Part shown: positions 4,727 to 42,821 of the stretch, in pieces
Layout: each line of letters opens with the position of its first letter
Numbering within the stretch: the stretch's first letter is position 1
Source of the DNA: Thermoanaerobaculia bacterium
GTDB taxonomy: Bacteria; Acidobacteriota; Thermoanaerobaculia; Multivoradales; UBA5704
DNA: 64,000 bases
Assembly: GCA_038250865.1 (NCBI GenBank)
Contig: JBBSBW010000025.1
Location: forward strand, 11,809 to 75,808
Direction: 5' to 3'
Position numbers and translations under genes: made by a program
Notes under the pieces: model-generated
Database searches by the model: none
What the model was told of the DNA's origin: nothing
Seen by the model: only the letters and a program-made list of their open reading frames with translations

Positions 4727-5584
4727 CTACTTCTTCGCGTGGTCGTAAAAGCCGCGGCCGCTCTTGCGCCCCAAGCGGCCGGCGAGCACCATCTGCTTGA
4801 GCAACGGCGGCGGGGCGAAGCGCTTTTCGCGGTACTCCTCGAACATGATGTCAGCGATGAAGAGGGTCGTGTCCAGCCCGACGAAATCGAGCAGGGTGAA
4901 CGGCCCCATCGGGTAGCCGCAGCCGAGCTGCATCCCCTTGTCGATGTCCTCGACCGAACCCACCCCCTCTTCGAGCGCGCGGATCGCGTCGAGCAGGTAG
5001 GGGACGAGCAGCCGGTTGACGATGAAGCCCGAGTTGTCGCGCGCCGCGATCGGCTCTTTGCCGACCTTCCGGGCGAACTCGAACGCTGCGTCGAACGCCT
5101 CGTCGGAGGTGAGGATCGTGCGCACCACCTCGACCAGCTTCATCACCGGCACCGGGTTGAAGAAATGGAGGCCTACGAAGCGGTCCGGCCGCTTCGTGCT
5201 CATCGCGAGCTGGGTAATGGTGAGCGACGAGGTGTTGGAGGCGAAGATCGCCTCAGGTTTGACGATCTCGTCGAGCGCCGCGAAGGTCTTCTTTTTCTCC
5301 TCGACGTTTTCGACGATCGCTTCCACCACCAGATCGCAATCGGCGAGGTCGGAAAACTCGGTGGTGCCGGTCAAGTTGGCAAGCGCCGCATCGCGCGCAG
5401 CCGCGTCGAGCTTCCCCTTCTCGACCGCCTTGCCGAGGGAGCCTTGGATCCGCGCGAGCCCCTTGTCCAGGAACCCTTGGTTCACCTCGCGCACCACCGT
5501 CGTACAACCCGCTTTCGCCGCAATCTCGGCGATCCCGGCGCCCATCAGGCCGCAGCCCAGGACGCCCACCTTCTGAATAGCCAT
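4727..5584 (-). CDS. hbd: 3-hydroxybutyryl-CoA / 3-hydroxyacyl-CoA dehydrogenase
   Basis: MAIQKVGVLGCGLMGAGIAEIAAKAG (NAD-binding), ASNTSSL and GFIVNRLL motifs. GGAGGA RBS 5 nt upstream of the ATG at 5584. Confidence 0.9.
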   Translation of the reverse strand: MAIQKVGVLGCGLMGAGIAEIAAKAGCTTVVREVNQGFLDKGLARIQGSLGKAVEKGKLDAAARDAALANLTGTTEFSDLADCDLVVEAIVENVEEKKKTFAALDEIVKPEAIFASNTSSLTITQLAMSTKRPDRFVGLHFFNPVPVMKLVEVVRTILTSDEAFDAAFEFARKVGKEPIAARDNSGFIVNRLLVPYLLDAIRALEEGVGSVEDIDKGMQLGCGYPMGPFTLLDFVGLDTTLFIADIMFEEYREKRFAPPPLLKQMVLAGRLGRKSGRGFYDHAKK

Positions 5585-5654
5585 ATCCATCCTCCGGAAA
5601 GAATCCGGGCAGCGCCCGGGGAGAGCGGACTCTACCCGGGCGACGCTCCGTCCG

Positions 5655-7406
5655 CTACTTTTTGGGCTCCGGCTCCGGCACCGGCGCCTCTCCGATGGCG
5701 CCGGTCGCCCCGGTCGCCCCGGTCGAATACCCCGCCCGGTCGGAGACCGCCCACATCGAATCGACCATTGTGAGGCCGTTGAAAATGCCGTTGCTCGATT
5801 GGAAGGTCTCGAGCGCGTTCGGATTCGGCGGGTTCGCCTGGAGATAGCTCGACGCCCGGCCGGCGTCCGGCTTCTGACCGGGGTTCAACGGCGGCCAGGC
5901 GGCCCGGTGGTGGCAGTTCATGCAGTTGGTGGTGATCGGGTGCGAGGCGGCCAGCTCGATATAGGGGTTGTAGGCGACCGGCCACGCCGGTCCTTTGGTT
6001 CCCGGGGGAACGTAATAGTTTTCGTTCCCTTGCTGCTGCGTCGTTCCGTACGTCGTGGTGATCATGTAGTTCTTGTACGTCGTGTCGCCGCCGGGCACCG
6101 CGTTAGGACGATGCTTGCAGTAACGGCTGCTGGAGGGATCGGTGCAGGCGAAAGCGTCCGGATGCCACCAGGCCGACTGGAAGGTCCAATCCGACTGCTC
6201 TTTGGTGATCATGTGCATGGCGACCAGCGCCAGCGAGTCGCCCGCTTGAAACGCTCGGTTGTAGGTCCAATAGGCCGAGGCGTCGAGGATCGCGCGGTCG
6301 CAGGTCGACAGCTTGCCCAGATCGATGTCCGAATATTTTCGGCTGTAAAAGCGGTCGAGGGTGACCCGATCGCCATCGTAGGAATTCGGGCCGAGCGGCT
6401 TGCCGTTGGGGTCGAGCACGCCGTAAAGGAATTGCACCCTTTTTCGGTCCGGCGGTCCGGGAGGGCCGCTGGAGATCGCGACCGCCCGGGTCCACAGGTT
6501 CTGCATCTCGAAGCCGGCGTATTTGCCGTCGGCCGGCGAACCCGGCTTGTTGGCGTCCCAATCCCAGATGGGCAGGGCGGTGACGCTGGTGTATGTGGTG
6601 CCGCCGCCCGCGACCGGCCAAAGCATGACCTTGAGGACGATCGACGTGGCGGGAAACTGCTGAATGCTCGTCGACGGGCTCGTCTTCGGTGGCAACTGGG
6701 AGTCGAGAGCCGCGGCGTTGTACAGGTTCTTCAGGAGGATGTTATTCAGCGCGGACTGGTTGTAGCTCACGGCCGCTACCATGATGTCGCCGTTACTCTG
6801 AAAATTCTGGCCGTCCTTGAGGTTGTAAAGCTGCGGATTGGTGCCGGGGATCCTCTGTAGACAGTCCTTATAATTGCGGTTGTTGACGATCGCTTGATTC
6901 ACGCCATAGATCGGTGCCGGGTTGTTGATCGCGCCCACCCCGCCGATCGCCGCGTTGGCCTGGTTCTTGGCGTTGAGCGTCACCGGACGCAGGACCTCGG
7001 GCGCGGCCTCTCCCCCTTCGGCCAGCGAAGGTTTCCAGGGGTTGTATTGGAAGGGGAAGGCTTGGGTCGAAGTCCCCCAAGTCCGCCAGGTGGGGTCCTT
7101 CGCCGCGTTCGCCGCCTGGTTCAGACCCGCGAACAGGCAATAAGCGTGGAAGCGCATCCGAGGGCCCTGTCCTGGAGTCACCCAAGATTGAATCGTGCCG
7201 GAAGACTGCGGATAGTCGAAACCCGCGGGAAACTGCGCGGTGGGAGGCGGGGTCAAGTTGTCGCAAGCCACCGGGTCCGCCACCCTTTCGACCTTGGCAG
7301 CGGGGGGAGCCTCCTCCGCAACCGGCGGAACGGATTCTTTCGGGGCACAGGCGATCAACACGGCAAAAGTCGAGGCCACGGCGGCAACGCGGAGCAGGGA
7401 ATGCAT
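5655..7406 (-). CDS. Large secreted lipoprotein of unknown function with a single C-terminal CxxCH motif
   Basis: 583 aa. N-terminal MHSLLRVAAVASTFAVLIAC (lipobox-like LIAC). Gln/Asn/Pro-rich. ...TTNCMNCHHRAAWPP carries a CxxCH heme-c-type motif about 90 aa from the C-terminus. Confidence 0.6.
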   Translation of the reverse strand: MHSLLRVAAVASTFAVLIACAPKESVPPVAEEAPPAAKVERVADPVACDNLTPPPTAQFPAGFDYPQSSGTIQSWVTPGQGPRMRFHAYCLFAGLNQAANAAKDPTWRTWGTSTQAFPFQYNPWKPSLAEGGEAAPEVLRPVTLNAKNQANAAIGGVGAINNPAPIYGVNQAIVNNRNYKDCLQRIPGTNPQLYNLKDGQNFQSNGDIMVAAVSYNQSALNNILLKNLYNAAALDSQLPPKTSPSTSIQQFPATSIVLKVMLWPVAGGGTTYTSVTALPIWDWDANKPGSPADGKYAGFEMQNLWTRAVAISSGPPGPPDRKRVQFLYGVLDPNGKPLGPNSYDGDRVTLDRFYSRKYSDIDLGKLSTCDRAILDASAYWTYNRAFQAGDSLALVAMHMITKEQSDWTFQSAWWHPDAFACTDPSSSRYCKHRPNAVPGGDTTYKNYMITTTYGTTQQQGNENYYVPPGTKGPAWPVAYNPYIELAASHPITTNCMNCHHRAAWPPLNPGQKPDAGRASSYLQANPPNPNALETFQSSNGIFNGLTMVDSMWAVSDRAGYSTGATGATGAIGEAPVPEPEPKK

Positions 7407-7552
7407 ATCGTTTTCTCCCGGTCACGGATTTTGCCGCAGCATAGCGTAATGGGCTGAGGGGAGGGCGCGCGGGGAGATCACGCCGCGAGGGATTGAAATC
7501 GCTCGCTTCATCTTCTCGTGGCGGCTAACTTAGAGGAAAACGCCTAACACTT

Positions 7553-7581
7553 TTGACGCAGCGCACACAGATGACTAGACT
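7553..7581 (+). promoter_or_regulatory. Putative sigma70-type promoter for the phd-vapC operon (would give a leaderless or near-leaderless mRNA)
   Basis: TTGACG - 17 nt - TAGACT, ending 6 nt before the ATG at 7588. Confidence 0.35.
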
Positions 7582-7587
7582 AGTCCG

Positions 7588-7881
7588 ATGGACATGACCG
7601 AGAAAACCGTTTCCGTCTCAGAGCTCAAAGCCCACCTCTCCGAGTGCCTCCGCAGGGTGAAGGATGGCGAACGTTGGATAGTTACCGAGCGCGGCCGACC
7701 AGTTGCCATTCTTGGCCCCTCCCCGAACCACGGCGACGATCTCGACGGGCTCGCTGCTGCGGGCGCAGTTCGCCTGGGGAGTCGCCGTATGCCTGCAAAG
7801 CTCTGGGATCTTCCTCAACCTGAAGACCCTGGCGACACCGTCCGCCGAGCGGTTCTCGAAGAGCGAGCTGGGGGATGGTGA
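7588..7881 (+). CDS. Phd/YefM-family type II antitoxin
   Basis: TVSVSELKAHLSECLRRVKDGERWIVTERGRPVAIL is the Phd/YefM fold signature. Overlaps the downstream PIN gene (ATGGTGA). Confidence 0.8.
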   Translation: MDMTEKTVSVSELKAHLSECLRRVKDGERWIVTERGRPVAILGPSPNHGDDLDGLAAAGAVRLGSRRMPAKLWDLPQPEDPGDTVRRAVLEERAGGW

Positions 7882-8333
7882 TTTTCTGGGATACCTCCGC
7901 CGTCGTTCCCCTCCTGGTCGCTGAGAGCACTTCGCCGGCCATCACCGAGTTGGCCCGCCTCACCACGCTTCTCGTCTGGTGGGGCACGCCGATCGAGTGC
8001 CTGTCAGCCATCGCGCGCAGGGAGGGCGAGGCGAAGCTCACCCCAGAGGGTGCCGACCAAGCGCGTCGGCGACTGACTCTTTTGCGTGAAAATTGGAGCG
8101 AGATCCTTCCTTCGGAACTTGTGCGCGAAAACGCCGAACGCGCTTTGCTGCGGCATCCGCTCCGAGCGGCAGATGCCTTACAGCTCGGAGCGGCGCTCCG
8201 CTGGGCCGAGAACAGCCCACGAGGTCATCGCTTTCACTCCTTGGACGACAGGCTGACCGAAGCAGCGCGCAAAGAGGGTTTCGAGCTGGTCGACGCAACG
8301 AACTTCATCGTCGAACACCCTGCTGACTCGTGA
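7875..8333 (+). CDS. vapC: VapC-type PIN-domain toxin
   Basis: MVIFWDTSAVVPLLVAES... and a conserved acidic residue pattern typical of PIN ribonucleases. Coupled to the upstream antitoxin. Confidence 0.8.
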   Translation: MVIFWDTSAVVPLLVAESTSPAITELARLTTLLVWWGTPIECLSAIARREGEAKLTPEGADQARRRLTLLRENWSEILPSELVRENAERALLRHPLRAADALQLGAALRWAENSPRGHRFHSLDDRLTEAARKEGFELVDATNFIVEHPADS

Positions 8334-8349
8334 ACTCTGATCGCCGCGG

Positions 8350-8748
8350 CTAGGGCAACGCCGGCAGCGAGTACTCGAAGTCGTACCCGTGCTTCCCACC
8401 TTCAATCAAGATGTGGAGGGTGCCGGAGATCCCCGCCAATTCGCCGGTGCCGGAATCGGGCACCACGTGTACCGCGAGGTCCGGCGTGCCGCGGGTCATG
8501 ATCCCGCGGTGATAGAGCGCGAACGTGCCTTGCCGCCCGGCGAGGGTGGCGGTCACCGTTTCGATAGCGACGTAGACCCCCGAACCCTCCGCGGCACCCG
8601 CGGTCAGCATCTGCCCGTTGCCGGTGCCTACGAGATCGCCGTGAAATTCTTTCTCGATCGACATGCGACCGAGGGTCGCGTCCTCCGCCGGACCGGCCAG
8701 CGGCAGCGGGTTGACCTTGACGTCGAATGCGCCCTTGGCGTGCTCCAT
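8350..8748 (-). CDS. DUF3224-family protein
   Basis: 132 aa, MEHAKGAFDVKVNPLPLAGPAEDATLGRMSIEKEFHGDLVGTGNGQM... Strong RBS GAGAGGAGAGGAAG before the ATG. The longer upstream ORF is rejected. Confidence 0.65.
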   Translation of the reverse strand: MEHAKGAFDVKVNPLPLAGPAEDATLGRMSIEKEFHGDLVGTGNGQMLTAGAAEGSGVYVAIETVTATLAGRQGTFALYHRGIMTRGTPDLAVHVVPDSGTGELAGISGTLHILIEGGKHGYDFEYSLPALP

Positions 8749-8962
8749 CTTCCTCTCCTCTCGGGGTGTCGTACGGCGTTCCCCTCCGTACAGTGGGGAT
8801 GCTATCAGGCGCACTTCAACCGGGATTTTTCGGCGCAGGGTCGGAAGATCATCCACGGAGTACGAGAAGGGATCGCGAGGCCGGCGACGGGACGAAGAGC
8901 AAGGGTTCGAATCACCGGAGGGCGACGACGGCGGGAGCGCCGACCGGCTAAGATGCCGTTCC

Positions 8963-9955
8963 ATGAACCGAGCACACCTTCTCGCCGGGGCGCTCGCGGT
9001 CGCCGCCTGGGTCGCACCGCTCGTGGCCCAAACTTCGGCGGTGGCTCCGGAGGCAACAGCCCAACCGACCGCCACACTTCAGATCACGCTGCTCGGTACC
9101 GGCAATCCGCGGCCTAGCCTGGAGCGATTCGGCCCGTCGATCCTGGTCGAAGCCGGCGCGCAGCGGGTGTTGATCGATGCCGGACGCGGCGCCTCGCAGC
9201 GGCTGTTCCAGATCGGCGGGCGCGATGCGTTGGTGAACATCGACGCGGTCTTCTTCACCCACCTGCACTCCGACCATGTGGTGGGCCTGCCGGACCTTTG
9301 GCTCACCAGCTGGATTTTCGGCCGCGCCAAGGCGCTCGAAGTGATCGGGCCTCCCGGAACGGCGGAAATGGCCGGCCATCTCGAACAGGCCTACGCCTGG
9401 GACATCGACGCCCGCGCCAAGGACGAGGGCCATCCCCGCGAAGGCGTTCGCCTGGCGGCGAAGAACGTGCAGCCGGGCGTCGTGTACGACCGGGACGGCT
9501 TGAAGGTGACCGCCTTCGCGGTCGATCACGGCAACCTTCTCAAGCCGGCCTACGGCTTCCGTATCGATTACCGAGGGCGTTCGGCGGCGTTTTCGGGCGA
9601 CACCCGATTCTTCGAGCCGCTCGTCGAGCAGGTCCAAGGCGTCGACGTGCTGGTCCACGAGGTGGTGAGCCCCGAGGTCGAACTCAAGCGCACGCTTGTC
9701 GAAGACCCGCACGCCGTGGAGGCGATCATCGCCCACCACACCACCCCCGAGCAGGCGGGCACGATCTTCAGCCGGGTCAAGCCGCGCCTGGCCGTCTATT
9801 CGCACATCGTCCCCTCGCCCACCACGGCGGAAGACCTGATCGGTCTGACGCGCCGCACCTACGCCGGACCGCTAGCGGTGGGCTACGACCTGATGACGAT
9901 CGTGATCGGCGACACGATCGAGGTCTATCCGCGAAAGACCACGGGCGACAACTAA
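8963..9955 (+). CDS. Secreted metallo-beta-lactamase-fold hydrolase
   Basis: Signal peptide MNRAHLLAGALAVAAWVAPLVAQ. MBL motif THLHSDHVVGL and later HxxD/H pattern. Confidence 0.8.
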   Translation: MNRAHLLAGALAVAAWVAPLVAQTSAVAPEATAQPTATLQITLLGTGNPRPSLERFGPSILVEAGAQRVLIDAGRGASQRLFQIGGRDALVNIDAVFFTHLHSDHVVGLPDLWLTSWIFGRAKALEVIGPPGTAEMAGHLEQAYAWDIDARAKDEGHPREGVRLAAKNVQPGVVYDRDGLKVTAFAVDHGNLLKPAYGFRIDYRGRSAAFSGDTRFFEPLVEQVQGVDVLVHEVVSPEVELKRTLVEDPHAVEAIIAHHTTPEQAGTIFSRVKPRLAVYSHIVPSPTTAEDLIGLTRRTYAGPLAVGYDLMTIVIGDTIEVYPRKTTGDN

Positions 9956-9969
9956 CCGGAGGTTCATAC

Positions 9970-10467
9970 GTGGCCTTGCCGACCGATTTGCTGAACGAAC
10001 TGGAAGAGATGCCGCAACAGTTGGAGCGAGCCCTTCGCCAATTACCGAGCGACCGGCTCGCCTGGAGTCCGGAGTCATGGGGCGGCTGTCCCAGCGAAAC
10101 GCTCTCGGCGCTCGAACAGGTATGCCACCTGCGCGACATCGAACAAGTCGGCTACCACCTGCGCATCCGGCGGATGCTGGACGAATCGAACCCCTCGCTC
10201 GAGTCCCTGGACAGCTACGAGATCGCCCAAGAGAGGCGCTACGGTTCCGACAACCTAGAAACAGCGCTCGAAGCCTTCCGCAGCGCAAGGCAGGCCACCG
10301 TCGAGCAGCTGCAAAACCTGACCGACGCTCAGCTCGCCCGAACCGGCGAGTTCGCCGAATACGGCCGGCTTACGCTACGGTCGCTGGTCCACTACCTGCG
10401 TAGCCACGACCAGCAACACCTGGCCGGAATCCAGTGGCTGGCGGGGAAGATCGCATCGCCCGAGTAG
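9970..10467 (+). CDS. DinB_2 / DinB-like (damage-inducible, four-helix bundle) family protein
   Basis: GTG start after a GGAGG RBS. LAWSPESWGGCPSETLSALEQVCHLRDIEQVGYHLRIRRML... fits DinB_2. Stop codon 1 nt before the tRNA-fragment repeat. Confidence 0.7.
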   Translation: MALPTDLLNELEEMPQQLERALRQLPSDRLAWSPESWGGCPSETLSALEQVCHLRDIEQVGYHLRIRRMLDESNPSLESLDSYEIAQERRYGSDNLETALEAFRSARQATVEQLQNLTDAQLARTGEFAEYGRLTLRSLVHYLRSHDQQHLAGIQWLAGKIASPE

Positions 10468-10468
10468 G

Positions 10469-10524
10469 GGTGCCGGAGGCGGGACTCGAACCCACATGAC
10501 CTTGCGGCCGAAAGATTTTAAGTC
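10469..10524 (-). repeat. attR-like partial copy of the 3' 56 nt of tRNA-Leu (direct repeat of 18071..18126; 4 mismatches)
   Basis: The minus-strand sequence GACTTAAAATCTTTCGGCCGCAAGGTCATGTGGGTTCGAGTCCCGCCTCCGGCACC matches the anticodon-loop-to-3'-end of the intact tRNA at 18072..18156 and lacks the 5' half. Confidence 0.85.
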
Positions 10525-11321
10525 TCGACACCGGAACAACCTAGCACAAGTGGGGAAAAACAAGCATAGGAAAACCTCAAGCGGGATAAGGGTTTTCTTG
10601 CGCCGGTGTTTTCTGGGCTGCTCTCATTTGTACCGTCTCAGGGGCACTCGAAAGGCACCTGCGGCACCTGAAAGGCACCTGGGAGGCACCCAGGGAATCG
10701 AGAGGAATCGGAACCCGGGGAAGGTATCCCGAGATCGGGAATCGCTCTCGACCACTGCCCAAGGGTGCCAAGAATGCCAAGGGTGCCAAGTTCTCCAAGG
10801 CACTGCGCGTGGCATCCTTGGCGCCTATCGGCTATGGGGCAAGCCCCGTGGAGCCATCGATCCGCCCAGAAGCGGCTAGTGGGAGGCGGAAGGGGGCGCG
10901 AGCGCCGGGGATAGGCTCGCGGGGACGACGAATGCTGCTCTGGCAGCGGAAGCAAAAGGCGGAGCAACCGGTTTCCCTTCCGGGTCATAGTGGGAACGGC
11001 GACGACGGTTCAAAGATGCTGGGAACCTCTCCCCCCTGGCGAATCGTCGCCACGGCGCGGACCTATCTCCAAGCGAAGCAGGGAGCTTTGGACATCGGCC
11101 CGCCTCTGTTTTGGAACGAATAGAGGCGCCGAAGCCCGCCGAGCTTGCGAGGCGAGCGTGCGTACCCCCCGGGTGGGGCTTCCTCTGCCCGACCCTCTCT
11201 TTCCTCATTTTCGCTATGCTTCTGGCGTTCAAGCGCGGCTAGGTCTGGCCACCGAACGCCGGTTCCCGTACCGGAGCGCCGCGCTGTTGTTCTCTTCTGC
11301 GGGGCGCCTTCGGGGGGTGCT

Positions 11322-12044
11322 ATGGCCAAGAAATGGTTCAGTGAGTGGTGGCAATCCTTCTCCCTCGGCGTGGGTGTCACCGTGGCGGTAGGCATTATCG
11401 CTGCCGCCTGGAAGTCTTGCCCCTACCTTTGGAGATGGCTACACGAAGGGGACGGAGAAGTAGCTCACCGGGCGGTTTTCATGTTGGCCGCACTACTCTT
11501 CTGTTTGGGGTTTTTTCAGTTCTTTAGGCCGCTGCGAGTTCGAGTAGTGCCAATACCAATCCCAGCGAATGAGACTCATCTGATAGTTCAAAACCTCGGA
11601 GGAATGAACGCATTTCGAGCGACGATTGAAATTCTGGAGATTCGTCTAGGTCTGGTCAAGCATAATCCTCGGCGAACCATTTGGAATCTTGGTTGGGCGA
11701 GAAACGAAGACCGCTCGAAATATCTCCAAGCCCACCAGAGCGGCAACCTAAATATAGCTACAGCATATGTTCGGCCTGCTCAGTATAGTCATGAAAGCTC
11801 TCAAATAGTCGGCGTTTATTTAATGCCGGCAAATGGCGAAGAGGGTGAGCTTGTTATGTATTCGGGAGATGTGGGCCAAACAGATATTGACATAAAGGTT
11901 ACCGTAATCTCAGATGATCCCAAGATAGTGTCATTTCTGTTACAACCTGTTCGCCCTTTCGTTGGACGTTTCACTATTAAGGGGAGCAAGGAGGACGGCC
12001 TTTCGATTCATCACTTCGTGCGCAAAAAGAAGACTAAGCCGTGA
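11322..12044 (+). CDS. Hypothetical membrane protein (2 N-terminal TM helices + ~170-aa soluble domain), island cargo
   Basis: MAKKWFSEWWQSFSLGVGVTVAVGIIAAAW ... FMLAALLFCLGFFQFF, then a soluble domain. Lower GC than the surroundings. The upstream ORF-track extension is rejected. Confidence 0.5.
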   Translation: MAKKWFSEWWQSFSLGVGVTVAVGIIAAAWKSCPYLWRWLHEGDGEVAHRAVFMLAALLFCLGFFQFFRPLRVRVVPIPIPANETHLIVQNLGGMNAFRATIEILEIRLGLVKHNPRRTIWNLGWARNEDRSKYLQAHQSGNLNIATAYVRPAQYSHESSQIVGVYLMPANGEEGELVMYSGDVGQTDIDIKVTVISDDPKIVSFLLQPVRPFVGRFTIKGSKEDGLSIHHFVRKKKTKP

Positions 12045-17817: not shown

Positions 17818-18071
17818 GGGATTGTTCCCCTTGCTCGGCAAGGCGTCGGGGGAGGGCTGTTATCCCTTCTCCGGCGCCGTTTTTGTTTCAGGGGGGGCGG
17901 AGCCAATCTCCGCCGCCGTCCCTGTTCTGCGGGCGGCAAGTCGAAAACCGGATCGGGGGACCGCGCGGGGAGGCGGTAGTAAGACGCAATCCTTCCCTCT
18001 GCGGCACCTGAAAGGCACCTGGAAGGAAAAGCAGGGAGGGAAGGATTAGGCTAAGTGTATGAATCCAAAAG

Positions 18072-18156
18072 GTGCCGGAGGCGGGAATTGAACCCGCATG
18101 ACCTTGCGGCCGAAGGATTTTAAGTCCTCTGCGTCTGCCATTTCGCCACTCCGGCA
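18072..18156 (-). tRNA. tRNA-Leu (anticodon UAA), class II with long variable arm
   Basis: Minus-strand GCCGGAGTGGCGAAATGGCAGACGCAGAGGACTTAAAATCCTTCGGCCGCAAGGTCATGCGGGTTCAATTCCCGCCTCCGGCACC. 7-bp acceptor stem, anticodon loop CTTAAAA, 17-nt variable arm, T-arm GGGTT/CCCGC. Confidence 0.85.
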
Positions 18157-34850: not shown

Positions 34851-35408
34851 CGTTTCTTCCGTCATGTCCCGGTTCCGTCTCTCCGCTTTGCGGGGGGCTC
34901 CGGGGGAGTCGCTGGCGCTTTCCGTGATTCGATGGTTGTTGTCCGTCGCTTCGCGCAAACCGCTCGCCCATTCCTCCAGCCTGTCCGCCTTTTTCTGGAA
35001 GCCTTCCTCGGCTTCGCGGAAGCCGTGCGCGTTAACGCGGAACGTTTCCGCGGACTCGCAATTCGATTCCGCGAATCGGCGGACGGCTTTCGTGAATTGC
35101 CGGACGGCTTTCGCCGATCGCCGGAAGCCGTTCGACAGTTGCCGGACGCTGTCCGCCGCTTGCTGGAAGCTCTCCGACATTCGCCGGATGCCTTTCGACA
35201 TTCGCCGGATGCCTTTCGACAATCGGCGGACGCCTTCCGTCGATTGCTGGAAGGCGTCCGCGGATCGTCGCGGGCCTTCCACGGATCGCTTTTTCTTCCT
35301 GCCTACCACCGCTCGGCCACCGCCGACGGCCACGGATAATCCTCTTCCCTGTCCGCAACTCTCGCCCCGTGGCACCGCTCGGCGCGTGGCGCGTCGAGCC
35401 TCATTCAA
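34725..35408 (-). CDS. Possible repeat protein (9-aa units, ..KGIRRMS / ..FRxAxEx) encoded by a 27-nt imperfect tandem array; coding strand uncertain
   Basis: Minus frame gives FQQSTEGVRRLSKGIRRMSKGIRRMSESFQQAADSVRQLSNGFRRSAKAVRQFTKAVRRFAES... (amphipathic-helix-like). The plus frames are also open (ORFs 34864..35496, 34932..35339). Confidence 0.3.
   Translation of the reverse strand: MNEARRATRRAVPRGESCGQGRGLSVAVGGGRAVVGRKKKRSVEGPRRSADAFQQSTEGVRRLSKGIRRMSKGIRRMSESFQQAADSVRQLSNGFRRSAKAVRQFTKAVRRFAESNCESAETFRVNAHGFREAEEGFQKKADRLEEWASGLREATDNNHRITESASDSPGAPRKAERRNRDMTEETLPLGWGRCQGGSYVIRGLLAARQLLGVTVVFPLRNPLKLAE
34990..35290. repeat. 27-nt imperfect tandem repeat array (~11 units)
   Basis: ttgccggacggctttcg.. 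/ ttcgccggatgcctttcgaca units; two exact 27-nt copies at 35174 and 35201. Confidence 0.8.
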
Positions 35409-35865: not shown

Positions 35866-38319
35866 CTATGTTTCTGAACCGCTTTGAGGCAATCCCGGAA
35901 TGGCATCCCAGCGCACCGGCACCGCCCGGCGGCGGTAGCCCCAGAGGCCATCGAGGCGCTCGGTGCCGGTGGTTTTTTCGAGCCCCTCGGCGACCATGCG
36001 AAAGGCTTCGACCACCCCGGGGACGACCAGGATGTGGCCGTTGTCGTCGCGCGGCATCTGCCAGCGGAAATCTTGCAGTGACCCCAGCTCCAGCATCGCT
36101 TCGCGCAGCTCGACGTAGAGCGCTCCCAGCCGCGCGGTGAGCGCCGCGAGGCCGCAGGTGGCGAAGAACGAATAGGGCTCGATCCGATCGATCGCGGAGA
36201 GAAGCTCTGGTTCGCCCTGGCAGCGGAAGACCTGCTCGGAAAGATCTTCCCGGTCGGTGCGCGCGGTGGTCAAGATCGCTCCAGGGCGGACATCTACGAA
36301 GCCGCCGGTCGCGAGGTGAAAGTCGCGAAAGTCCGCGAGCGTTCCGCCGCTTCCCCGTGCGTGACTCTGCTCAATGTGTTCGGCGATCCGGTCCGTTCCG
36401 TCGAACAGGATTTCAAACGGCGCAACAAAGAATCCCGTGCGCACGAAAGTGACCCCGTCCCGTTCGAAGACGATCGGCGAGCCGAGCGAGGGGATCGCCC
36501 AGACTGCCTCCAGGGCGCGGCGGAAAATTCGGCTCTGCGCCTGGTTTTTCTTGGGAAACAAGCCGCCATGGCGCCCGGGGTTCAAGACCGCGAGATCCTC
36601 TTCCGTGTCCGCGCCGACGAGGATCTGCATCTCACGCGCGAGGTCGGGCAACGGCCAATGGGCGAGATCCTCGAAGGTGAGCGGCTTGGACCGTTCGAGC
36701 AGGAAGCGCTCCGGATCGAAGCGGTCGAGATCGACGTACGGGTCGATCGCGTCGATGTCCACCGTGCGCAACCGATGGAGCAAGATCAGCAACGACAGGG
36801 CGTGCAGCTCCCCCTGGTGCTTGGCCGAGCCGAGATCTTGGAGCGCCATCGGTTCGAGGCCCGAAACCTGCGCCGCGAGCAGCGGCGGCTGATTCAGCAG
36901 GTCGAACACCTGACGCGAGTTGTCGGTCTCGGTGTAATAGCAGACGTTGTTCTCGGAAGCGGGAAACCAGGGGGCGTTGCCGTCGTCGCCCAGCACCCCC
37001 ACCGAGGCGAGGACCAGGGCCAGCTCGGAGGCACTCGCCACCCGCATCGTCCGATAGAGCGCGTCGGCGTTGGCGACGCTGAAGAAGCCGTTTTCGCCGC
37101 TTCGGATCGAATAGGCCGGACGGAGCGGCTCGCCCGCTTCGAAGAGCGCGCGGCCGGCAGAGGGATTTTCGAGCGGGACGGTGAGCGGCGGCGCCACGCG
37201 CACCATGTGGCGCACGGGTTTGCCGTCCGAACCGATTCTTTGGGCCCCGGGGAAGATCTCCTCCGCGGCATCGTGGATCAGGTGCGACGGCCGGGCGTGG
37301 AGCGGAATCGGCTCGCGCAGGCGAACCTCGTCGATGCCGATCGCGGCGGCGGTGATCAGGATCTTCAAGCCGAGCTGGCCGTACTCGTGGGCCAGCTCCT
37401 CGGCGAAGCGCTGCTTGTCGACCAGGAACTCGTCCTTCGCACTGTGGGCGAAGCCGAGCCGGATGCTCCTCTTCTTGCCGCTTTCCACCGAGCTTTCGTC
37501 GTACATCCCGCCGACCGCCGTGGTGTGGGCGATCAACACCTCGTCGGCCAGGCCGCGGACCTCGGCGAGGTCGTCGCGGAAGGACCCGACGAACGCCTCC
37601 TGAAGCTCGTCCCCCGCGTCGGCAGACGCGTCGAGGTGGCTCACCACCTGCCGCAGGTGGTGCTGGTGGTAGGCGATCAGGCTCGGGATCGGGATGCCTA
37701 GGGTGACCGAACGGAAGCGCCCCATCGCTTGGCCCTCGAAATGCTTTTCGAGGTAGCCGCGGAGAAAGGTCGCCACCGGCCGCGCCGCGCCGATCGCTTC
37801 GAGCAGCGTCGCGATCGGTTTTTGGCCGCCGCCGGGCGCCAGCTTTTCGATGAACGAATGGACGAAGGCGCGGCGCTCGTCGATCGCCACTTCCTGGATC
37901 GCGCCGAGACCCGGCAACACGTTCAGCCGGAAACGCTCGAAGGCGACGAACACGCCGCTTGCGGTGAGATACCCGGATCCGACCTTCCTGGGATGCAACG
38001 CTTCGCCGTGGCGCGTCTCGACGTAGCGGAACAGGCGCCGGGTGAAGGCCCGGATGTCGTCCCGGCCCAGGCCGGTCGCGAGCAGGATCGGCACGTCGTC
38101 CGCTCCGGGGGTGGCGACCGTCATCATCTCTTCGTACATCGAGAGCATTTGAAGCAAAGCCGTACCGCCGACCGCCCCGGTACCGCCGATGATCGCGTGA
38201 AGATCCCGCCACCGCTCGCCCGAACGCGCAGCCTGGGCCAGGCGCGGGCCGAGCCGCTGCTTCTTATAGCTTCGAGTCATAGAGGGGGCAACGTACTTCT
38301 CGCAACGGCTGCGCGTCAA
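35866..38319 (-). CDS. Large (817 aa) uncharacterised cytoplasmic protein with N-terminal Rossmann-like GGTGAVGG motif, last gene of the ECF sigma operon
   Basis: LHAIIGGTGAVGGTALLQML... near the N-terminus, then >700 aa with no motif I can name. TTG/ATG start in a 4-nt overlap with the anti-sigma stop. Confidence 0.65.
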   Translation of the reverse strand: MTRSRCEKYVAPSMTRSYKKQRLGPRLAQAARSGERWRDLHAIIGGTGAVGGTALLQMLSMYEEMMTVATPGADDVPILLATGLGRDDIRAFTRRLFRYVETRHGEALHPRKVGSGYLTASGVFVAFERFRLNVLPGLGAIQEVAIDERRAFVHSFIEKLAPGGGQKPIATLLEAIGAARPVATFLRGYLEKHFEGQAMGRFRSVTLGIPIPSLIAYHQHHLRQVVSHLDASADAGDELQEAFVGSFRDDLAEVRGLADEVLIAHTTAVGGMYDESSVESGKKRSIRLGFAHSAKDEFLVDKQRFAEELAHEYGQLGLKILITAAAIGIDEVRLREPIPLHARPSHLIHDAAEEIFPGAQRIGSDGKPVRHMVRVAPPLTVPLENPSAGRALFEAGEPLRPAYSIRSGENGFFSVANADALYRTMRVASASELALVLASVGVLGDDGNAPWFPASENNVCYYTETDNSRQVFDLLNQPPLLAAQVSGLEPMALQDLGSAKHQGELHALSLLILLHRLRTVDIDAIDPYVDLDRFDPERFLLERSKPLTFEDLAHWPLPDLAREMQILVGADTEEDLAVLNPGRHGGLFPKKNQAQSRIFRRALEAVWAIPSLGSPIVFERDGVTFVRTGFFVAPFEILFDGTDRIAEHIEQSHARGSGGTLADFRDFHLATGGFVDVRPGAILTTARTDREDLSEQVFRCQGEPELLSAIDRIEPYSFFATCGLAALTARLGALYVELREAMLELGSLQDFRWQMPRDDNGHILVVPGVVEAFRMVAEGLEKTTGTERLDGLWGYRRRAVPVRWDAIPGLPQSGSET

Positions 38320-39113
38320 GGCGTCAGCCGAAACTTGAGCGGCGGAGAGCCCGCGAGCCGCTTCCCCGCGGCGTCCTTCGCCTCGACCGACCAGGCGTAG
38401 ACCACGGCGGTTTGCAGCTTAGCCGCGGCCTCCGCGGGGAGGGTGAGCGGCGAGGCCTTGGCCGTGCCGCTCCAGATCTCCTCACCGAGCGGATCGACGA
38501 TCCGCACCCGGTAGGTGGCGGCCCCCGCGACCGCTTCCCATTCGAGCGCGGAGGGCGCTTGGGGCTGCTCCCCTTCCGGGCCGCGCAGCAGGACGGTCGA
38601 GCCGCGGTAGGTCTCGGCTCCCTGCGGCGGAGGGGGAAGCGCCGGCAGGTCTCGCTGGCGCAACTCGATCGCCAAGCCGATTCCCAGCGCGAGCAACGCG
38701 GCCAGGGCGAGGCCCCATCCCGCAAAGGATCGGCCCGGCCGGCGCACCGGCAGGCTCTGCGGAACGGCGACCGGCTCGCTCCTCTGCGCCGTACGGCCGA
38801 CCGGGAACGGCACGACGTTCGAACGGACGGGCGGAGCCTGCTGGCCTTGAGCCTCTTCGATCCGCCCGACGACGAAGGCCAGGTCCTCGTCCGAGACGTC
38901 GCCGGCATCGAAGGGGAGATCCCACAGGCCGGCCAGATCGCGCTCCGCCGCGCAGGCCGGGCAGGACGCGGCATGGGCTTCGATCCGCTGCCGTTCCGCC
39001 GCCGGCAGCTTCACCCACTCGGCTTCGACGAACAGCTTGGGCGCCGGGCACCCTTCCTCGAACGCTCCGCGCAGGTGGTCGGCGAACGTTTCTTCCCGAG
39101 GGTCACGGCTCAT
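38316..39113 (-). CDS. Zinc-finger-type anti-sigma factor, single-pass membrane protein
   Basis: N-terminal ...IEAHAASCPACAAERDLAGLW (HxxxCxxC), TM segment GWGLALAALLALGIGLAI, periplasmic C-domain. ATGA overlap with the sigma gene. Confidence 0.7.
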   Translation of the reverse strand: MSRDPREETFADHLRGAFEEGCPAPKLFVEAEWVKLPAAERQRIEAHAASCPACAAERDLAGLWDLPFDAGDVSDEDLAFVVGRIEEAQGQQAPPVRSNVVPFPVGRTAQRSEPVAVPQSLPVRRPGRSFAGWGLALAALLALGIGLAIELRQRDLPALPPPPQGAETYRGSTVLLRGPEGEQPQAPSALEWEAVAGAATYRVRIVDPLGEEIWSGTAKASPLTLPAEAAAKLQTAVVYAWSVEAKDAAGKRLAGSPPLKFRLTP

Positions 39114-39859
39114 GACGCGCTCCTTCCGGCGTTGCCCGCCTCGCGGCGGGCGAAACCCCCTTTGAGCTTGCGCAGGGCGGCGACGATATAGGCCTTGGCA
39201 CCCGATTTATTGGTCAGGCCGAGCACGGCGCCGATCCGGGGGAGGGTCAAACCGTGGACGTAATGCAGGATCAGGACCCGCGACTCCAGCGGCTCGAGGT
39301 CGTTCGTCACCGCCTCGCGCAGCCGAGCGTGAATCTCAGCGGCCTCGAGGTCGTCCGAGATCGCGGGCAGCTCGTCCGCCACCTCGGGCGCGCCCTCCTC
39401 GTCGAGCGACTGGGTCTTCCGGCGCGACTGGTATTCGGCGCGGTTGAGCGCAACGCTGCGGGTCACCTGGTAGAGCCAGGTCGAAAAGCGGCTGTCGCCG
39501 CGGAACGAGTCGAGCCGCGAATGGATGCGCAGGAACACGTCCTGCGCGACGTCGGCGGCCTCTTCGCGATCCCCCGCGATGCGCAGGCACCAGGCGGCGA
39601 CTTTCGGGCGGTAGCGCCGGTAGAGTTCGCCGAAACAGGCGTCGGCCGAACCCGGCTCGCGCCGCGCCCGGGCGATCAGCTCCTCGTCGCTCGCTTGGCC
39701 GAAGCTCAAGGCCGAACTCCGCGACGGCTGGTCGGTTCGGTGGAAGGAAGGGGCATCGGCGCGATCGGAACGGTAGGAGCGGGATCGCCGCCGGGGACGA
39801 CCCGACGGAGCCTGAAGCCTACTCGAAGAACGCGGCGCGGGGGGAGAGAGGGCGAGCAT
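39110..39859 (-). CDS. ECF-family RNA polymerase sigma-70 factor
   Basis: Region 2 ADVAQDVFLRIHSRLDSFRGDSRFSTWLYQVTRSVALNRAEYQ and region 4 LESRVLILHYVHGLTLPRIGAVLGLTNKSGAKAYIVAALRKL. The N-terminal ~60 aa may be an overcall. Confidence 0.85.
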   Translation of the reverse strand: MLALSPPAPRSSSRLQAPSGRPRRRSRSYRSDRADAPSFHRTDQPSRSSALSFGQASDEELIARARREPGSADACFGELYRRYRPKVAAWCLRIAGDREEAADVAQDVFLRIHSRLDSFRGDSRFSTWLYQVTRSVALNRAEYQSRRKTQSLDEEGAPEVADELPAISDDLEAAEIHARLREAVTNDLEPLESRVLILHYVHGLTLPRIGAVLGLTNKSGAKAYIVAALRKLKGGFARREAGNAGRSAS

Positions 39860-39887
39860 ACGTCCTAAGACAGCCCGGCGGCCTCAG

Positions 39888-39913
39888 CGGAACAGGAATC
39901 CCCCAGGCCGTTC
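39888..39913 (-). promoter_or_regulatory. Candidate ECF-type promoter (GGAAC - 16 nt - GTTCC) upstream of the ECF sigma gene
   Basis: Minus strand reads GGAACggcctgggggattcctGTTCCg, 30-55 nt upstream of the start codon. Resembles the GGAAC...GTC/CGT autoregulated ECF promoter architecture. Confidence 0.3.
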
Positions 39914-39989
39914 CGGCGCCGACGGAATCGGAGGCGTGGTGGGCTCGGCCCTGTTTCGTCACCTTTTGATGCGGACTCCGCCCCGGCTT

Positions 39990-40282
39990 TCAGGGCTCGA
40001 CGCCCAGCAATTCTCGAAACGATCCGAACGGCATCTTGAACCGTCGTGTTTCAAGGCTCGCCTTGTCAGCGTCCGCATCTTCTATATTGATCAGCCCTCC
40101 GCGAATCGCACGAATGTAGAGATCGGCAGTACCGATGATGCGGCGCTCCCCAATCCGGTTGACCGCCTCGCGCCAAAACCCCCGCAGAAATCCAATCTCG
40201 CCACATGGATCAAATTGATGAGGACATTGGCATCGGCAACAACGATCCGATACGGCCGAACTGTCATAGAGCCTCGGCTCAA
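39990..40282 (-). pseudogene. PIN-like nuclease gene (DUF4411-like) with a +1 frameshift in a G5/T4 run; coupled to the ImmA/IrrE gene
   Basis: Frame A (40282..40091) starts in a TTGA overlap with the ImmA stop and gives MTVRPYRIVVADANVLINLIHVARLDFCGG (PIN-like N-terminus). Frame B (to 39990) continues ...FWREAVNRIGERRIIGTADLYIRAIRGGLINIEDADADKA... Joining at ccccc/aaaa (40171..40183) restores ...LDFCGGFWREAV, which matches the FDxCPxFW motif of DUF4411. Confidence 0.5.
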
Positions 40283-41511
40283 AGGTCGCCGAGACCCACG
40301 TCATCAATCAGGCTGGCAATTCGATTTCGGTCGAATCCAAGCATTGATGCCAATTCATTGAGTTTCCCGCGCGATATCTCTTCTCGCCGAAACGCTTCCA
40401 GCGCGAGCCCCAAGATGCGATGTTGGAAACCGTCGCGACCTTCGGCAGTATCGGACTCCGCGAGGCCCAGATGCTCCGCGATCTGTTTGCCTCTACCTGA
40501 GTCGTCGAGAGCTTTCAAGCGATCGAAATCGCCTCTGGAGAGCAGCCGAAGGTTGCGTAGGCGATAGAGCGCGGCAATGCGGCTGACGCCGAAATGGTGA
40601 GCGAGCTGAATGACGTCGTAGAGCTGGACCACCTGGCTTCCGGGCGCCGTACGTCCTTCGGCCTCAAGACTATCGGCCCCGTCAAAGACATCGGCGTAGG
40701 TGCGGCTCGGCATTCCTTTTCCCAGGCCGGCGATGAATTGTCGGACGCCGTCTTGGGGCATCAATAAGCTGGCTCCAAAGGCGTTCGCCCGCACCTCGAT
40801 GAGGTTGTCGCTCTCGGAAGATCGGCTCACGAGGCCAAAGCGGTCTCGATCTGCAAGAACATGCGCATACTCATGGGCCAGAGAGAACCGACGCCTGAGG
40901 AGGTGGTGGCTCCGGTTGGCAACGACAAAGAATCCCACTGCTCGGTCGTTCAGAGTGAGCCCCGAAACATCGGCCGGAAGATCAATGACGCCTGTACGAA
41001 GGCCCTGCGTCTCCAGTAGCTCCCCGATGTCCGGAAGAGCTGCATCGCCGAGTCCGAGTCGCCGTCGTTCCTCCCCGGCGAGCCTTTCGCCTTGCTGGAT
41101 CGCCCCCCAACGGTTGGCGGGAAGCGGCATCGCGTAAGTCACCGTCGCCGCTACGCCCCGATCGATGCCGAGCAGAAACTCGAGGTTAGTGATCTCTCGA
41201 CCGAGAGTCATACATTCGCGCAGGGCGTCAGCTACCCCGGGCTGCGCCAAAACATCCGGTTGTGCGCGGAAAAGAGCTGCCAGCGAATCTGCTTCGTCAA
41301 AGGACTCCGAGAAAAAGCCGCGAATATCGCGACCAAAAAGGTGCGCGAGCTTGTCGAGCTCAAGGCTTGAGACGGAGCGATTGCCGGCCTCAACTTGAAC
41401 GACGGTTGGGCGGGAAACCCCTAGCTGCTCCGCAACCTGATCTTGGGTCAGGCGACAGGCCTCCCTCGCGCTTCGAATCCGGCGTCCGAGCTCTTGTTGC
41501 GTCACCAGCAT
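40279..41511 (-). CDS. XRE-family HTH fused to ImmA/IrrE-type (COG2856) zinc metallopeptidase domain
   Basis: N-terminal LVTQQELGRRIRSAREACRLTQDQVAEQLGVSRPTVVQVEAG (HTH_XRE). Central HEXXH: RRRFSLAHEYAHVLAD and downstream E. C-terminal helical region. Confidence 0.8.
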   Translation of the reverse strand: MLVTQQELGRRIRSAREACRLTQDQVAEQLGVSRPTVVQVEAGNRSVSSLELDKLAHLFGRDIRGFFSESFDEADSLAALFRAQPDVLAQPGVADALRECMTLGREITNLEFLLGIDRGVAATVTYAMPLPANRWGAIQQGERLAGEERRRLGLGDAALPDIGELLETQGLRTGVIDLPADVSGLTLNDRAVGFFVVANRSHHLLRRRFSLAHEYAHVLADRDRFGLVSRSSESDNLIEVRANAFGASLLMPQDGVRQFIAGLGKGMPSRTYADVFDGADSLEAEGRTAPGSQVVQLYDVIQLAHHFGVSRIAALYRLRNLRLLSRGDFDRLKALDDSGRGKQIAEHLGLAESDTAEGRDGFQHRILGLALEAFRREEISRGKLNELASMLGFDRNRIASLIDDVGLGDL

Positions 41512-41981
41512 CCTCCTTCCCTACACCGTCAGGGTCCAAGCTACAACCAGAAGAGGCCCCCGATCCGCGACTGACGTTAGTATTTCTTACTCGCCCCGTC
41601 AATCTAAGGCTTGCGACCAGACGGAACTCAGGGCAAAAAAGGCTCCCTTTTTGCCCGGACCGAACGAGATGTCCACCTCCAATGCGGCAAGAACAGGATC
41701 CTGAAACTTTCTGAAGCGATCGGGTCCTGTTCTTGGGCCCAGGCCGCACTATCGCTATTGAGGATCCCGTCCGTCTTTACGATCGGCGCGTGCGCTTGTC
41801 GCCCACTTCCGATCCGCTTTTGCTTTTTTCCCGGAAACCTACCGTTTCCGGTGGGTCGTCTTGGAATCGAGTTCGCTGCCTCGATCCCGCCGCTCGTCCG
41901 GGTCTCGATTCCTCATCGGGAGGGTCGGTCCTTTTTGGGCGGCGCCCAGATTCAGCGAAAATTGTTTGGAGGATTGGTCGA

Positions 41982-42821
41982 ATGCGGAACGGAAGCATGA
42001 AGTTTGCCCTGGCCTTGTCTTGCGGTGTATTGACGCTCGCCTCCATCGCCGCGAACGCGGCAGGCAGGAACCCGATCGTCTACACCCCGGCTCGCGGGCA
42101 CGAATCGAAGGTCGTCAGGGCCGTGAACCTGACCTACCACGGCGGACCGGTCATCACCTCGGCCAAGGTGGTCTACATCTTCTGGGGCGCGGCCTTTTGC
42201 ACCGGGGGTAGCGATCACACCTACGCAACGACCCTCCAGGCCTACCGGAACCAGTTCGGCACGACCCCGGAGTACAACACCATCACCCAGTACTCGGGCA
42301 TTCAGCTCGCGAACCTCGGCACCGGCAGCCCCGACCTGTTCGATTGCACGAACCCGGTGGCCAAGGTGACCGACGCCAAGGTCCAAGCCAAGGTCAATTC
42401 CTACATCGCCTCGTTCGGCTTCAACGCCAGCACGATCTACGAAGTGGTCATCCCGAGCACCTCGTACTCTTCGAGCGGCGGCAGCTCCTCGTGCGGCGGC
42501 CCGCACCTCTCCTACTGTGCGTACCACAGCTGGATCGGCTCCGGCGCGAACGCCACGAAGTACTCCATTCAACCCTATCCGAGCTGCTCCGGCTGCCAGG
42601 TTGCGGGTTGGACCTCGGTCCAAAACCAGGAGCACTTCGTTTGCCACGAGACCCGCGAAGCGGTGACCGACCCGACCGGCCTCGGCTGGTTCGACTCCTC
42701 GGGCGCGGAAGCCGACGACAAGTGCGCCTGGACCCCCTCGCCTTTCATCGGCACCGGCGGCTACGGCTATCAGTACCAGTGGTCGAACGCGGCGAGCGCC
42801 TGCGTGAAGACCGTTCCCTGA
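41982..42821 (+). CDS. Secreted hypothetical protein (Cys-containing, Ser/Gly/Thr-rich)
   Basis: MRNGSMKFALALSCGVLTLASIAANAAG signal. GGAGGA RBS. 8 Cys. No motif assigned. Confidence 0.55.
   Translation: MRNGSMKFALALSCGVLTLASIAANAAGRNPIVYTPARGHESKVVRAVNLTYHGGPVITSAKVVYIFWGAAFCTGGSDHTYATTLQAYRNQFGTTPEYNTITQYSGIQLANLGTGSPDLFDCTNPVAKVTDAKVQAKVNSYIASFGFNASTIYEVVIPSTSYSSSGGSSSCGGPHLSYCAYHSWIGSGANATKYSIQPYPSCSGCQVAGWTSVQNQEHFVCHETREAVTDPTGLGWFDSSGAEADDKCAWTPSPFIGTGGYGYQYQWSNAASACVKTVP

Follow-up and report, generated by a model that had tools for sequence, protein, structure and literature searches.

Does a gene that directly follows a sigma factor of the extracytoplasmic function (ECF) class and its anti-sigma factor belong to their regulatory system? 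The question is raised by a 64,000-nucleotide stretch of DNA from a Thermoanaerobaculia bacterium (assembly GCA_038250865.1, contig JBBSBW010000025.1, positions 11,809 to 75,808; hereafter the window), in which three minus-strand open reading frames (ORFs), for a sigma factor (39110-39859, 249 aa), an anti-sigma factor (38316-39113, 265 aa) and a large protein (35866-38319, 817 aa when counted from a TTG codon), follow one another. The original prediction, which placed the ORFs correctly, joined them into one transcription and translation unit and made the large protein the obligate third gene of an ECF system. The comparisons reported here indicate that the three genes do not form a real unit. 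The region is best read, with a probability of about 0.75, as a set of adjacent but independent modules, namely the ECF pair, a stand-alone gene for an 804-aa protein and an unrelated ImmA-PIN insertion, and the apparent three-gene architecture is attributed to chance adjacency combined with a mis-called start codon. The coordinates of all features are collected in Table 1.

Linkage and start of the large gene

Conserved genomic context (>50%) is a criterion defining ECF groups (PMC7826278). The context of the large gene was followed through a scan of GTDB species genomes, in which 167 stretches encode the family and the best 80 of these are the loci studied here. Across all loci, tblastn places the sigma/anti-sigma pair beside the large gene solely at those whose large protein shares at least 84% identity with that of the window (L008/L013, L009, L010, L011, L012 and L062, which is truncated). 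Relatives at 88-91% identity keep the sigma gene, the anti-sigma gene and the large gene in this order, and the pair is absent in the 83% relative and at all loci of 60% identity or below, including three homologues at 57-59% identity with unrelated neighbours, so that it is lacking at >70 of the best 80 family loci. In the 83% relative (L007), nucleotide synteny shows the same two flanking genes and a clean indel, with the 1.6-kb sigma/anti-sigma cassette missing and homology beginning again at 38321 of the window, where the anti-sigma gene stops. All-against-all clustering of the flanking ORFs revealed no family-wide neighbour, only clade-specific synteny.

The same holds when the pair is followed instead of the large gene. 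At three distant loci (L090-L092), with sigma factors 57-60% and anti-sigma factors 40-46% identical to those of the window, no 800-aa gene stands beside the sigma pair; downstream of it come a ~340-aa protein, which has a signal-peptide-like N-terminus and matches no Pfam family, and, after this, a convergent TPR-CHAT (caspase-like) protein of 841-867 aa. In neither direction, therefore, does the large protein appear as the conserved third gene of an ECF-group architecture. Orthologous pairs without the third gene had been named in the original prediction itself as evidence against it, and the claim of an obligate third gene is therefore abandoned; the neighbourhood comparison proposed there returns a linkage that is specific to one lineage. 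That the large gene stands behind the sigma cassette is thus peculiar to one lineage, a narrow clade of Thermoanaerobaculia in which the two lie side by side. As a separate observation, the TPR-CHAT neighbours at L090-L092 recall the published links between TPR-CHAT proteins and ECF sigma factors in DdvA-DdvS (PMC11506125) and craspase.

The junction between the anti-sigma and the large gene had been taken as a TTGA overlap, in which a TTG would start the large gene within a single translation unit. This overlap does not hold as a start. Homologues of the large protein are ~805 aa long and their alignments begin at ATG 38280, 13 codons inside the 817-aa ORF, while in relatives TTGAC stands 38, 39 or 40 nt before the ATG, a spacing that does not preserve the reading frame, and the stretch between them is therefore non-coding. 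On these alignments the large gene most likely starts at ATG 38280 (804 aa) and not at the TTG; this ATG lies on the same strand as the anti-sigma gene, after a gap of 35 nt, and is not preceded by a Shine-Dalgarno (SD) sequence. The anti-sigma stop codon and the supposed TTG start fall within a –35-like box, TTGACG. In seven loci, the cassette-less L007 included, two invariant blocks, CCTTGACG and AGTACGTTGCCC, are separated by a variable spacer of 17-18 nt and followed by the ATG, a pattern with one occurrence in the window where 0.00 are expected. More distant members carry related elements at the corresponding place, a TAnnnT box 8-10 nt before the ATG in the Thermoanaerobaculia clade at 46-48% identity and a TAGACT box followed by an SD-containing leader in the Actinomycetota, and the ECF promoter motif described below is absent upstream of the large gene in L007 and L014.

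The third module had also been drawn into the system, as part of a 5.6-kb block together with the ECF genes. In the 97% relative L010, window positions 42877-41624 correspond to locus positions 5097-6346 and window positions 39922-34816 to locus positions 6360-11447, so that ~1.7 kb (39923-41623) is absent and the flanks join within 14 nt. The GC content of the 40001-42000 interval, which holds most of the module, is 0.588, compared with 0.64-0.70 in the neighbouring intervals. Because it is absent from L010 with contiguous flanks, the ImmA-PIN module is an insertion unrelated to the ECF pair, and the larger block dissolves with it. The module encodes a 410-aa ImmA/IrrE-HTH protein with Peptidase_M78 and HTH_3 domains, which matches RmrA in PADLOC (3e-23). 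Its 63-aa PIN-like ORF ('IVVADANVLINLIH') appears to be cut short, and a frameshift in it is suggested by a 105-aa ORF that overlaps it in a different frame.

The sigma and anti-sigma factors

The pair itself is conventional and belongs to an already known kind of ECF system. The sigma protein matches Sigma70_r2 (PF04542) with 59.6 bits against a cut-off of 24 in the Pfam scan and TIGR02937 (sigma70-ECF) with 89.9 bits against a cut-off of 42.9 in the NCBIfam scan, in which no equivalog was found at cut-off; two Pfam models of region 4 remain just under gathering (21.8 vs 24.1 and 21.6 vs 25.7). Region 2, the ECF-type match over the whole protein and the adjoining cognate anti-sigma gene place it among the ECF (group 4) sigma factors, as had been proposed. 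The anti-sigma protein matches zf-HC2 (PF13490) with 23.8 bits against a cut-off of 22.2 (Pfam scan) and carries the motif H47-x3-C51-x2-C54, and C22, H47, C51 and C54 are invariant in 26 homologues. The H-x3-C-x2-C motif, the zf-HC2 domain and the conserved zinc ligands are those of a class I zinc-binding anti-sigma (ZAS) factor, in agreement with the earlier assignment, and binding of both zinc and sigma is predicted by analogy. A single transmembrane (TM) helix at residues 131-149 (KD 2.11) is followed by an extracytoplasmic domain of ~100 aa, rich in Trp and Tyr and without a Pfam match, the conserved core of which consists of W192, Y201, R202, W214, Y239 and W241 in the same 26 homologues. 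The ATGA overlap between the sigma stop and the anti-sigma start, the one overlap of the original prediction that is real, is kept in close relatives and in L090-L092, and the two genes are presumably co-transcribed.

When the window and five close relatives are aligned upstream of the sigma gene, TGTTC[CT]-N13-GGCTGTC is invariant and an ATG follows it after exactly 9 nt; the same motif with the same geometry lies upstream of the three distant orthologues, L090-L092, and it occurs once in the window against 0.02 expected. Read as a –35 element TGTTC, a ~17-nt spacer and a –10 element TGTC, the motif fits the geometry of ECF promoters. A palindrome, GGAAC-N16-GTTCC, had been put forward as the promoter. 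It exists (39889-39914; one found against 0.12 expected), and one half of it, GTTCC, recurs in relatives as the –35 element in TGTTCC-N17-GTCT, but its GGAAC half is not conserved, and the palindrome as such goes only weakly beyond chance, being reached by 9 of 100 shuffles.

The sigma gene appears to have two starts. In 9/9 loci an ATG lies in frame 9-10 nt after the –10-like GTC, the ORF is open from it into the sigma core, and the resulting N-terminal extension measures 23-64 aa, its indels being multiples of 3 in our reading of alignment A3. These features support the upstream ATG 39859 (249 aa) as a start of the sigma protein and, because this ATG is 9 nt from the –10 element, the long isoform would be translated from a leaderless or near-leaderless mRNA. 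In addition, an invariant GGAG (39720-39717) precedes an invariant TTG/GTG at 39709 by 7-8 nt, and a second, shorter isoform of 199 aa is therefore suggested; gene callers choose the 199-aa start in the relatives. In both the sigma gene (39868-39859) and the large gene (38295-38280) the ATG is found exactly 9 nt after a conserved –10-like element, which suggests that mRNAs without a leader may be frequent in this lineage of Thermoanaerobaculia.

Among described systems, the closest likeness is to DdvA-DdvS of Myxococcus xanthus (PMC11506125, in which the ZAS domains of RslA, RsiW and ChrR are compared), which shares with the pair of the window an ECF sigma factor with sigma2 and sigma4, an anti-sigma factor made up of a CHCC zinc-finger domain at the N-terminus, a single TM helix and a sensor domain outside the cytoplasm, overlapping genes, and, ahead of the sigma gene, a conserved promoter that suggests autoregulation. 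Unlike the TPR-CHAT domain of DdvA, the extracytoplasmic domain of the window anti-sigma is small and matches no Pfam family. ECF sigma factors with two isoforms and N-terminal extensions are represented by sigmaR/sigmaR' of Streptomyces coelicolor, SigH (ECF12) and the BldN pro-sigma (ECF121) (PMC7826278). As in sigmaR/sigmaR', an upstream in-frame start would give an extension on a ZAS-regulated sigma factor, with a second start signal at the boundary of the core sigma; unlike in sigmaR, SigH and BldN, the isoforms of the window are deduced from sequence conservation alone, and the extension is Arg/Ser/Pro-rich and poorly conserved. RsrA is soluble, whereas the anti-sigma of the window is membrane-bound.

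The large protein and its family

The large protein belongs to a real, widespread and unannotated family. At least 839 homologues were found in a word-indexed search, all of them annotated as hypothetical and none with a precomputed Pfam domain, and identity still amounts to 55-60% between Acidobacteriota and Actinomycetota. The best 80 of the 167 GTDB loci are all from metagenome-assembled genomes (MAGs), with no cultured isolate among them, and are distributed over Thermoanaerobaculia, Blastocatellia/Pyrinomonadaceae, Actinomycetota, Myxococcota, Planctomycetota, Armatimonadota, Longimicrobium, Vulcanimicrobiota and Bacillota, so that the family spans at least eight phyla. Some MAGs hold two copies of the gene (L048/L052, L039/L046 and L033/L050). 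A hidden Markov model search of 1.84 billion representatives returned 137 clusters (50% clustering) of one architecture, full-length at 745-863 aa and otherwise fragments; no known family was reached, every match being a family member or a fragment of one. The single architecture in this length range, with no known family in reach, shows that two known enzymes have not been fused here, an artefact that had been considered possible. Its description as cytoplasmic and uncharacterised holds, since neither a TM segment nor a signal peptide was found and searches against Pfam, NCBIfam, PADLOC and PHROG gave no match; likewise, a comparison of 38 aligned members with Pfam at E<=5 gave nothing recurrent. 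The motif IIGGTGAVGG is present near the N-terminus as reported, and its glycines are invariant across the family.

Structural comparison had been proposed as a check. The full-length AlphaFold2 model (pLDDT 77.4, pTM 0.72) contains a beta1-loop-alphaA-beta2 unit and shows a Rossmann-like alternation of strands and helices, and Foldseek against the Protein Data Bank (PDB) gives only weak matches to Rossmann folds of short-chain dehydrogenases/reductases (SDRs) and extended SDRs (E>=5e-3, target TM 0.25-0.4, ~300 columns), while ~480 residues match no known structure. Profile searches of the PDB with two alignments gave only E>=0.12, and with the divergent profile (alignment A4, 31-55% identity) a match to the Gly loop of HSCARG/NmrA appears at E about 0.6. 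A model of the C-terminal part by itself (residues 321-804) is poor (pLDDT 57) and matched nothing, which suggests that this part, without a detectable solved relative, packs against the N-terminal domain. Two further candidates were set aside: an extended-SDR assignment through GalE, for which hhalign aligned the Gly loop only (26 columns, 5% probability), and a TubZ/tubulin fold, for which TubZ/RepX reached E=0.6 and no FtsZ/tubulin occurred in the top 50 Foldseek matches.

The likeness to SDRs and to NmrA/HSCARG lies in an N-terminal beta-strand, a GGTGxxGG loop and a helix, with VIFGGTGAVGG in the window corresponding to VVFGGTGAQGG in HSCARG, so that the glycine motif of SDRs (TGxxGxxG-type on a Rossmann fold) is present as GGTGAVGG. 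Unlike SDRs of 250-350 residues, the protein is ~800 aa long, lacks an invariant YxxxK and continues for ~480 further residues without a detectable relative, and neither Pfam at E<=5 nor hhalign nor Foldseek returned a significant SDR match in sequence or fold. In alignment A4 the invariant residues are G32-G-T-G-A36, G39, T69-G70, S200, Y204, H252-T-T254, G257-G-M259, H279 and K289, then S394-G-E-N-G398, Y409, E419, H488-Q489, H493, D663, R665 and R717, and finally R761, E765, K769, E774 and Y782; no catalytic YxxxK of the SDR type is among the invariant or near-invariant residues, the candidates in its place being T253/T254, H279 and K289. The protein is probably a cytoplasmic dinucleotide-binding protein and may well be an NAD(P)-dependent enzyme, a reading drawn only from the invariant motif and the weak fold similarity. 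Going further, it could tentatively be taken as the founder of an undescribed enzyme family, with a divergent SDR-like NAD(P)-binding domain (Thr/His/Lys for Ser/Tyr/Lys) and ~480 residues of a fold without a solved relative, spread in soil bacteria of at least eight phyla (so far as MAGs) and placed here secondarily, by ECF read-through, under envelope-stress control.

Competing readings and neighbouring genes

In transmembrane ZAS anti-sigmas, the zinc domain binds sigma2 and sigma4, and on a signal the extracytoplasmic domain is lost and intramembrane proteolysis frees the sigma factor (PMC11506125); moreover, ECF sigma factors commonly autoregulate their own operon (PMC7826278). From the gene identities, start codons, conservation of both promoter-like footprints and pattern of synteny and indels established here, we infer promoter activity, leaderless transcripts, a signalling mechanism and cofactor binding. 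By analogy, the cytoplasmic CHCC zinc domain would hold the sigma factor until the ~100-aa extracytoplasmic domain senses an envelope signal and the anti-sigma is inactivated in consequence, probably by regulated proteolysis; the freed sigma factor would then transcribe its own bicistronic, probably autoregulated operon from TGTTCC-N17-GTCT. The 804-aa gene would be transcribed separately through TTGACG-N18-TACGTT and translated from a leaderless ATG, read-through from the ECF promoter being possible and not required.

Several observations weigh against independent modules. TACGTT agrees with TATAAT at 3/6 positions, a consensus scan reported no sigma-70 promoter at the large-gene footprint, and the promoter of the large gene is a candidate drawn from conservation. 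That scan also detected nothing resembling a terminator on the gene strand from the anti-sigma to the large gene, and ECF-driven read-through is therefore plausible. In addition, 7/7 distinct members of the clade keep the large gene adjoining the pair, and the weak fold matches of the large protein do not establish its function.

Part of this evidence would be accommodated by a lineage-specific regulatory capture, in which the large gene keeps its own promoter and ECF read-through adds it to the envelope-stress regulon, hence the lasting adjacency. The missing terminator-like site agrees with such a capture, as do the position of the anti-sigma stop, in the –35 box or no more than ~50 nt from it, and the persistence of the arrangement across relatives with 84-97% identical large proteins. 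However, in so shallow a clade shared ancestry alone would explain this persistence, a long transcript may be translated inefficiently from an internal ATG without SD, and L007 lacks the cassette altogether, so that capture is considered possible but rather doubtful.

It is less likely still that the large protein is a redox enzyme of the thiol/peroxide-stress response, e.g., an NAD(P)H-dependent reductase acting with a peroxiredoxin, for which a place after a ZAS anti-sigma would be meaningful. The invariant GxGxxG-type motif and the weak SDR and NmrA/HSCARG similarity would suit it, as would the Bcp-type, apparently selenocysteine-containing, peroxiredoxin downstream of the family gene in 10 Actinomycetota loci. 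Nevertheless, this association is limited to one phylum-level clade that shares other synteny too, and a peroxiredoxin stands beside the family gene neither in the window nor in other clades; the invariant residues include neither a CxxC nor a YxxxK, and a membrane-anchored anti-sigma points to an envelope signal and not to a cytoplasmic redox signal.

The tricistronic ECF operon, with the large protein as a dedicated, obligate third component (an output enzyme or a co-regulator), is regarded as very improbable. The common strand, the 35-nt gap without a terminator-like site on that strand and an adjacency retained in seven distinct clade loci speak for it, but the linkage is absent in the 83% relative and at >70 other family loci, the sigma orthologues adjoin other genes, the footprint of the large gene stays conserved where the cassette is missing, the overlapping TTG is no start codon, and the context is not conserved as in ECF groups (PMC7826278). 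Finally, a STAS/SpoIIAA-like anti-sigma-antagonist module at residues ~680-725, partner-switching with the sigma pair, is hardly credible: a SpoIIAA match recurs in two profile searches and the AlphaFold2 model is beta-alpha-beta-alpha there, but membership was rejected on matches short of significance (E=0.9, then 0.12; hhalign 11% over 45 columns), none of 38 members matched Pfam STAS at E<=5, the great majority of family loci have no link to sigma factors, and ZAS anti-sigmas are not SpoIIAB-type kinases.

Some neighbours of the family gene deserve mention in their own right. The Bcp/PrxQ-type peroxiredoxin gene of the 10 Actinomycetota loci is on the same strand and directly adjacent in 7 of them; it has an in-frame TGA at the codon of the peroxidatic Cys (FPKAFTxG[TGA]) in 10/10 loci and, in 9/10, the loci with DNA inspected, a conserved stem-forming sequence after it (GGGGTTC...GA[GA]CCCC), and thus looks like a selenocysteine peroxiredoxin with a hairpin resembling a selenocysteine insertion sequence (SECIS), split by the gene callers. 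In the 46-48% Thermoanaerobaculia clade L061 and about 18 further loci share a conserved ORF of ~215 aa, which in most of them directly precedes the family gene and in several lies at a distance of 0.2-3 kb; its product has, ~30 residues from the mechanical start, a stretch like a signal peptide, no Pfam match and a motif, LSAHGDP...LLQSCDTG, reminiscent of a caspase/CHAT-type His-Cys dyad. In L001 (Blastocatellia) genes for a bacterial microcompartment (BMC) shell protein and an aldehyde dehydrogenase are directly upstream of the family gene and co-directional, an arrangement found in one genome only and rejected as a conserved neighbourhood. In the window, a 21-nt tandem repeat downstream of the large gene (7.8 copies; periods of 42 and 84 also scored) lies inside overlapping ORFs encoding heptad-like repeats such as RRMSKGIRRMSKGIRRMS, and a tRNA-Leu gene is the only Rfam/tRNA match.

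Table 1. Features of the window and of related loci (window coordinates unless a locus is named)
Feature	Position	Strand	Details
ECF-type promoter-like element	39868..39894	-	TGTTCC (39894-39889)-N13-GGCTGTCT; GTCT ends at 39868; ATG 9 nt downstream
ECF sigma gene	39110..39859	-	249 aa from ATG 39859; possible 199-aa form from TTG 39709
ZAS-type (zf-HC2, CHCC) anti-sigma gene	38316..39113	-	265 aa; single-pass TM; ATGA overlap with sigma gene
Large-gene promoter-like footprint	38290..38319	-	TTGACG (38319-38314), 18-nt spacer, TACGTT (38295-38290), ATG 9 nt downstream
804-aa protein gene	35866..38280	-	GGTGAVGG dinucleotide-binding motif at 38164-38193
ImmA-PIN insertion, outside the unit	39923..41623	-	ImmA/IrrE-HTH gene 40279-41511; PIN-like ORF 40091-40282
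21-nt tandem repeat	35074..35236		array up to 35067-35278
tRNA-Leu gene	18071..18155	-	anticodon TAA
Sigma pair with TPR-CHAT gene	L090 5390-10276; L091 5273-10526; L092 5390-9035
Peroxiredoxin gene	L003 10479-10949		TGA at 10608; also in L019, L020, L025, L026, L027, L031, L032, L034, L055
~215-aa ORF	L061 7316-7963
BMC shell protein and aldehyde dehydrogenase genes	L001 5573-7687

The outcome is first of all the removal of a false lead, with the ImmA-PIN module recognized as a separate insertion. What lasts is a defined ECF promoter motif, TGTTCC-N17-GTCT, with sequence evidence for a leaderless and dual-start sigma factor in Thermoanaerobaculia, the finding that orthologous sigma pairs adjoin a TPR-CHAT protein, and a strongly conserved, unannotated family of many phyla, without a structural relative over most of the protein's length, which is a reasonable target for structural genomics.

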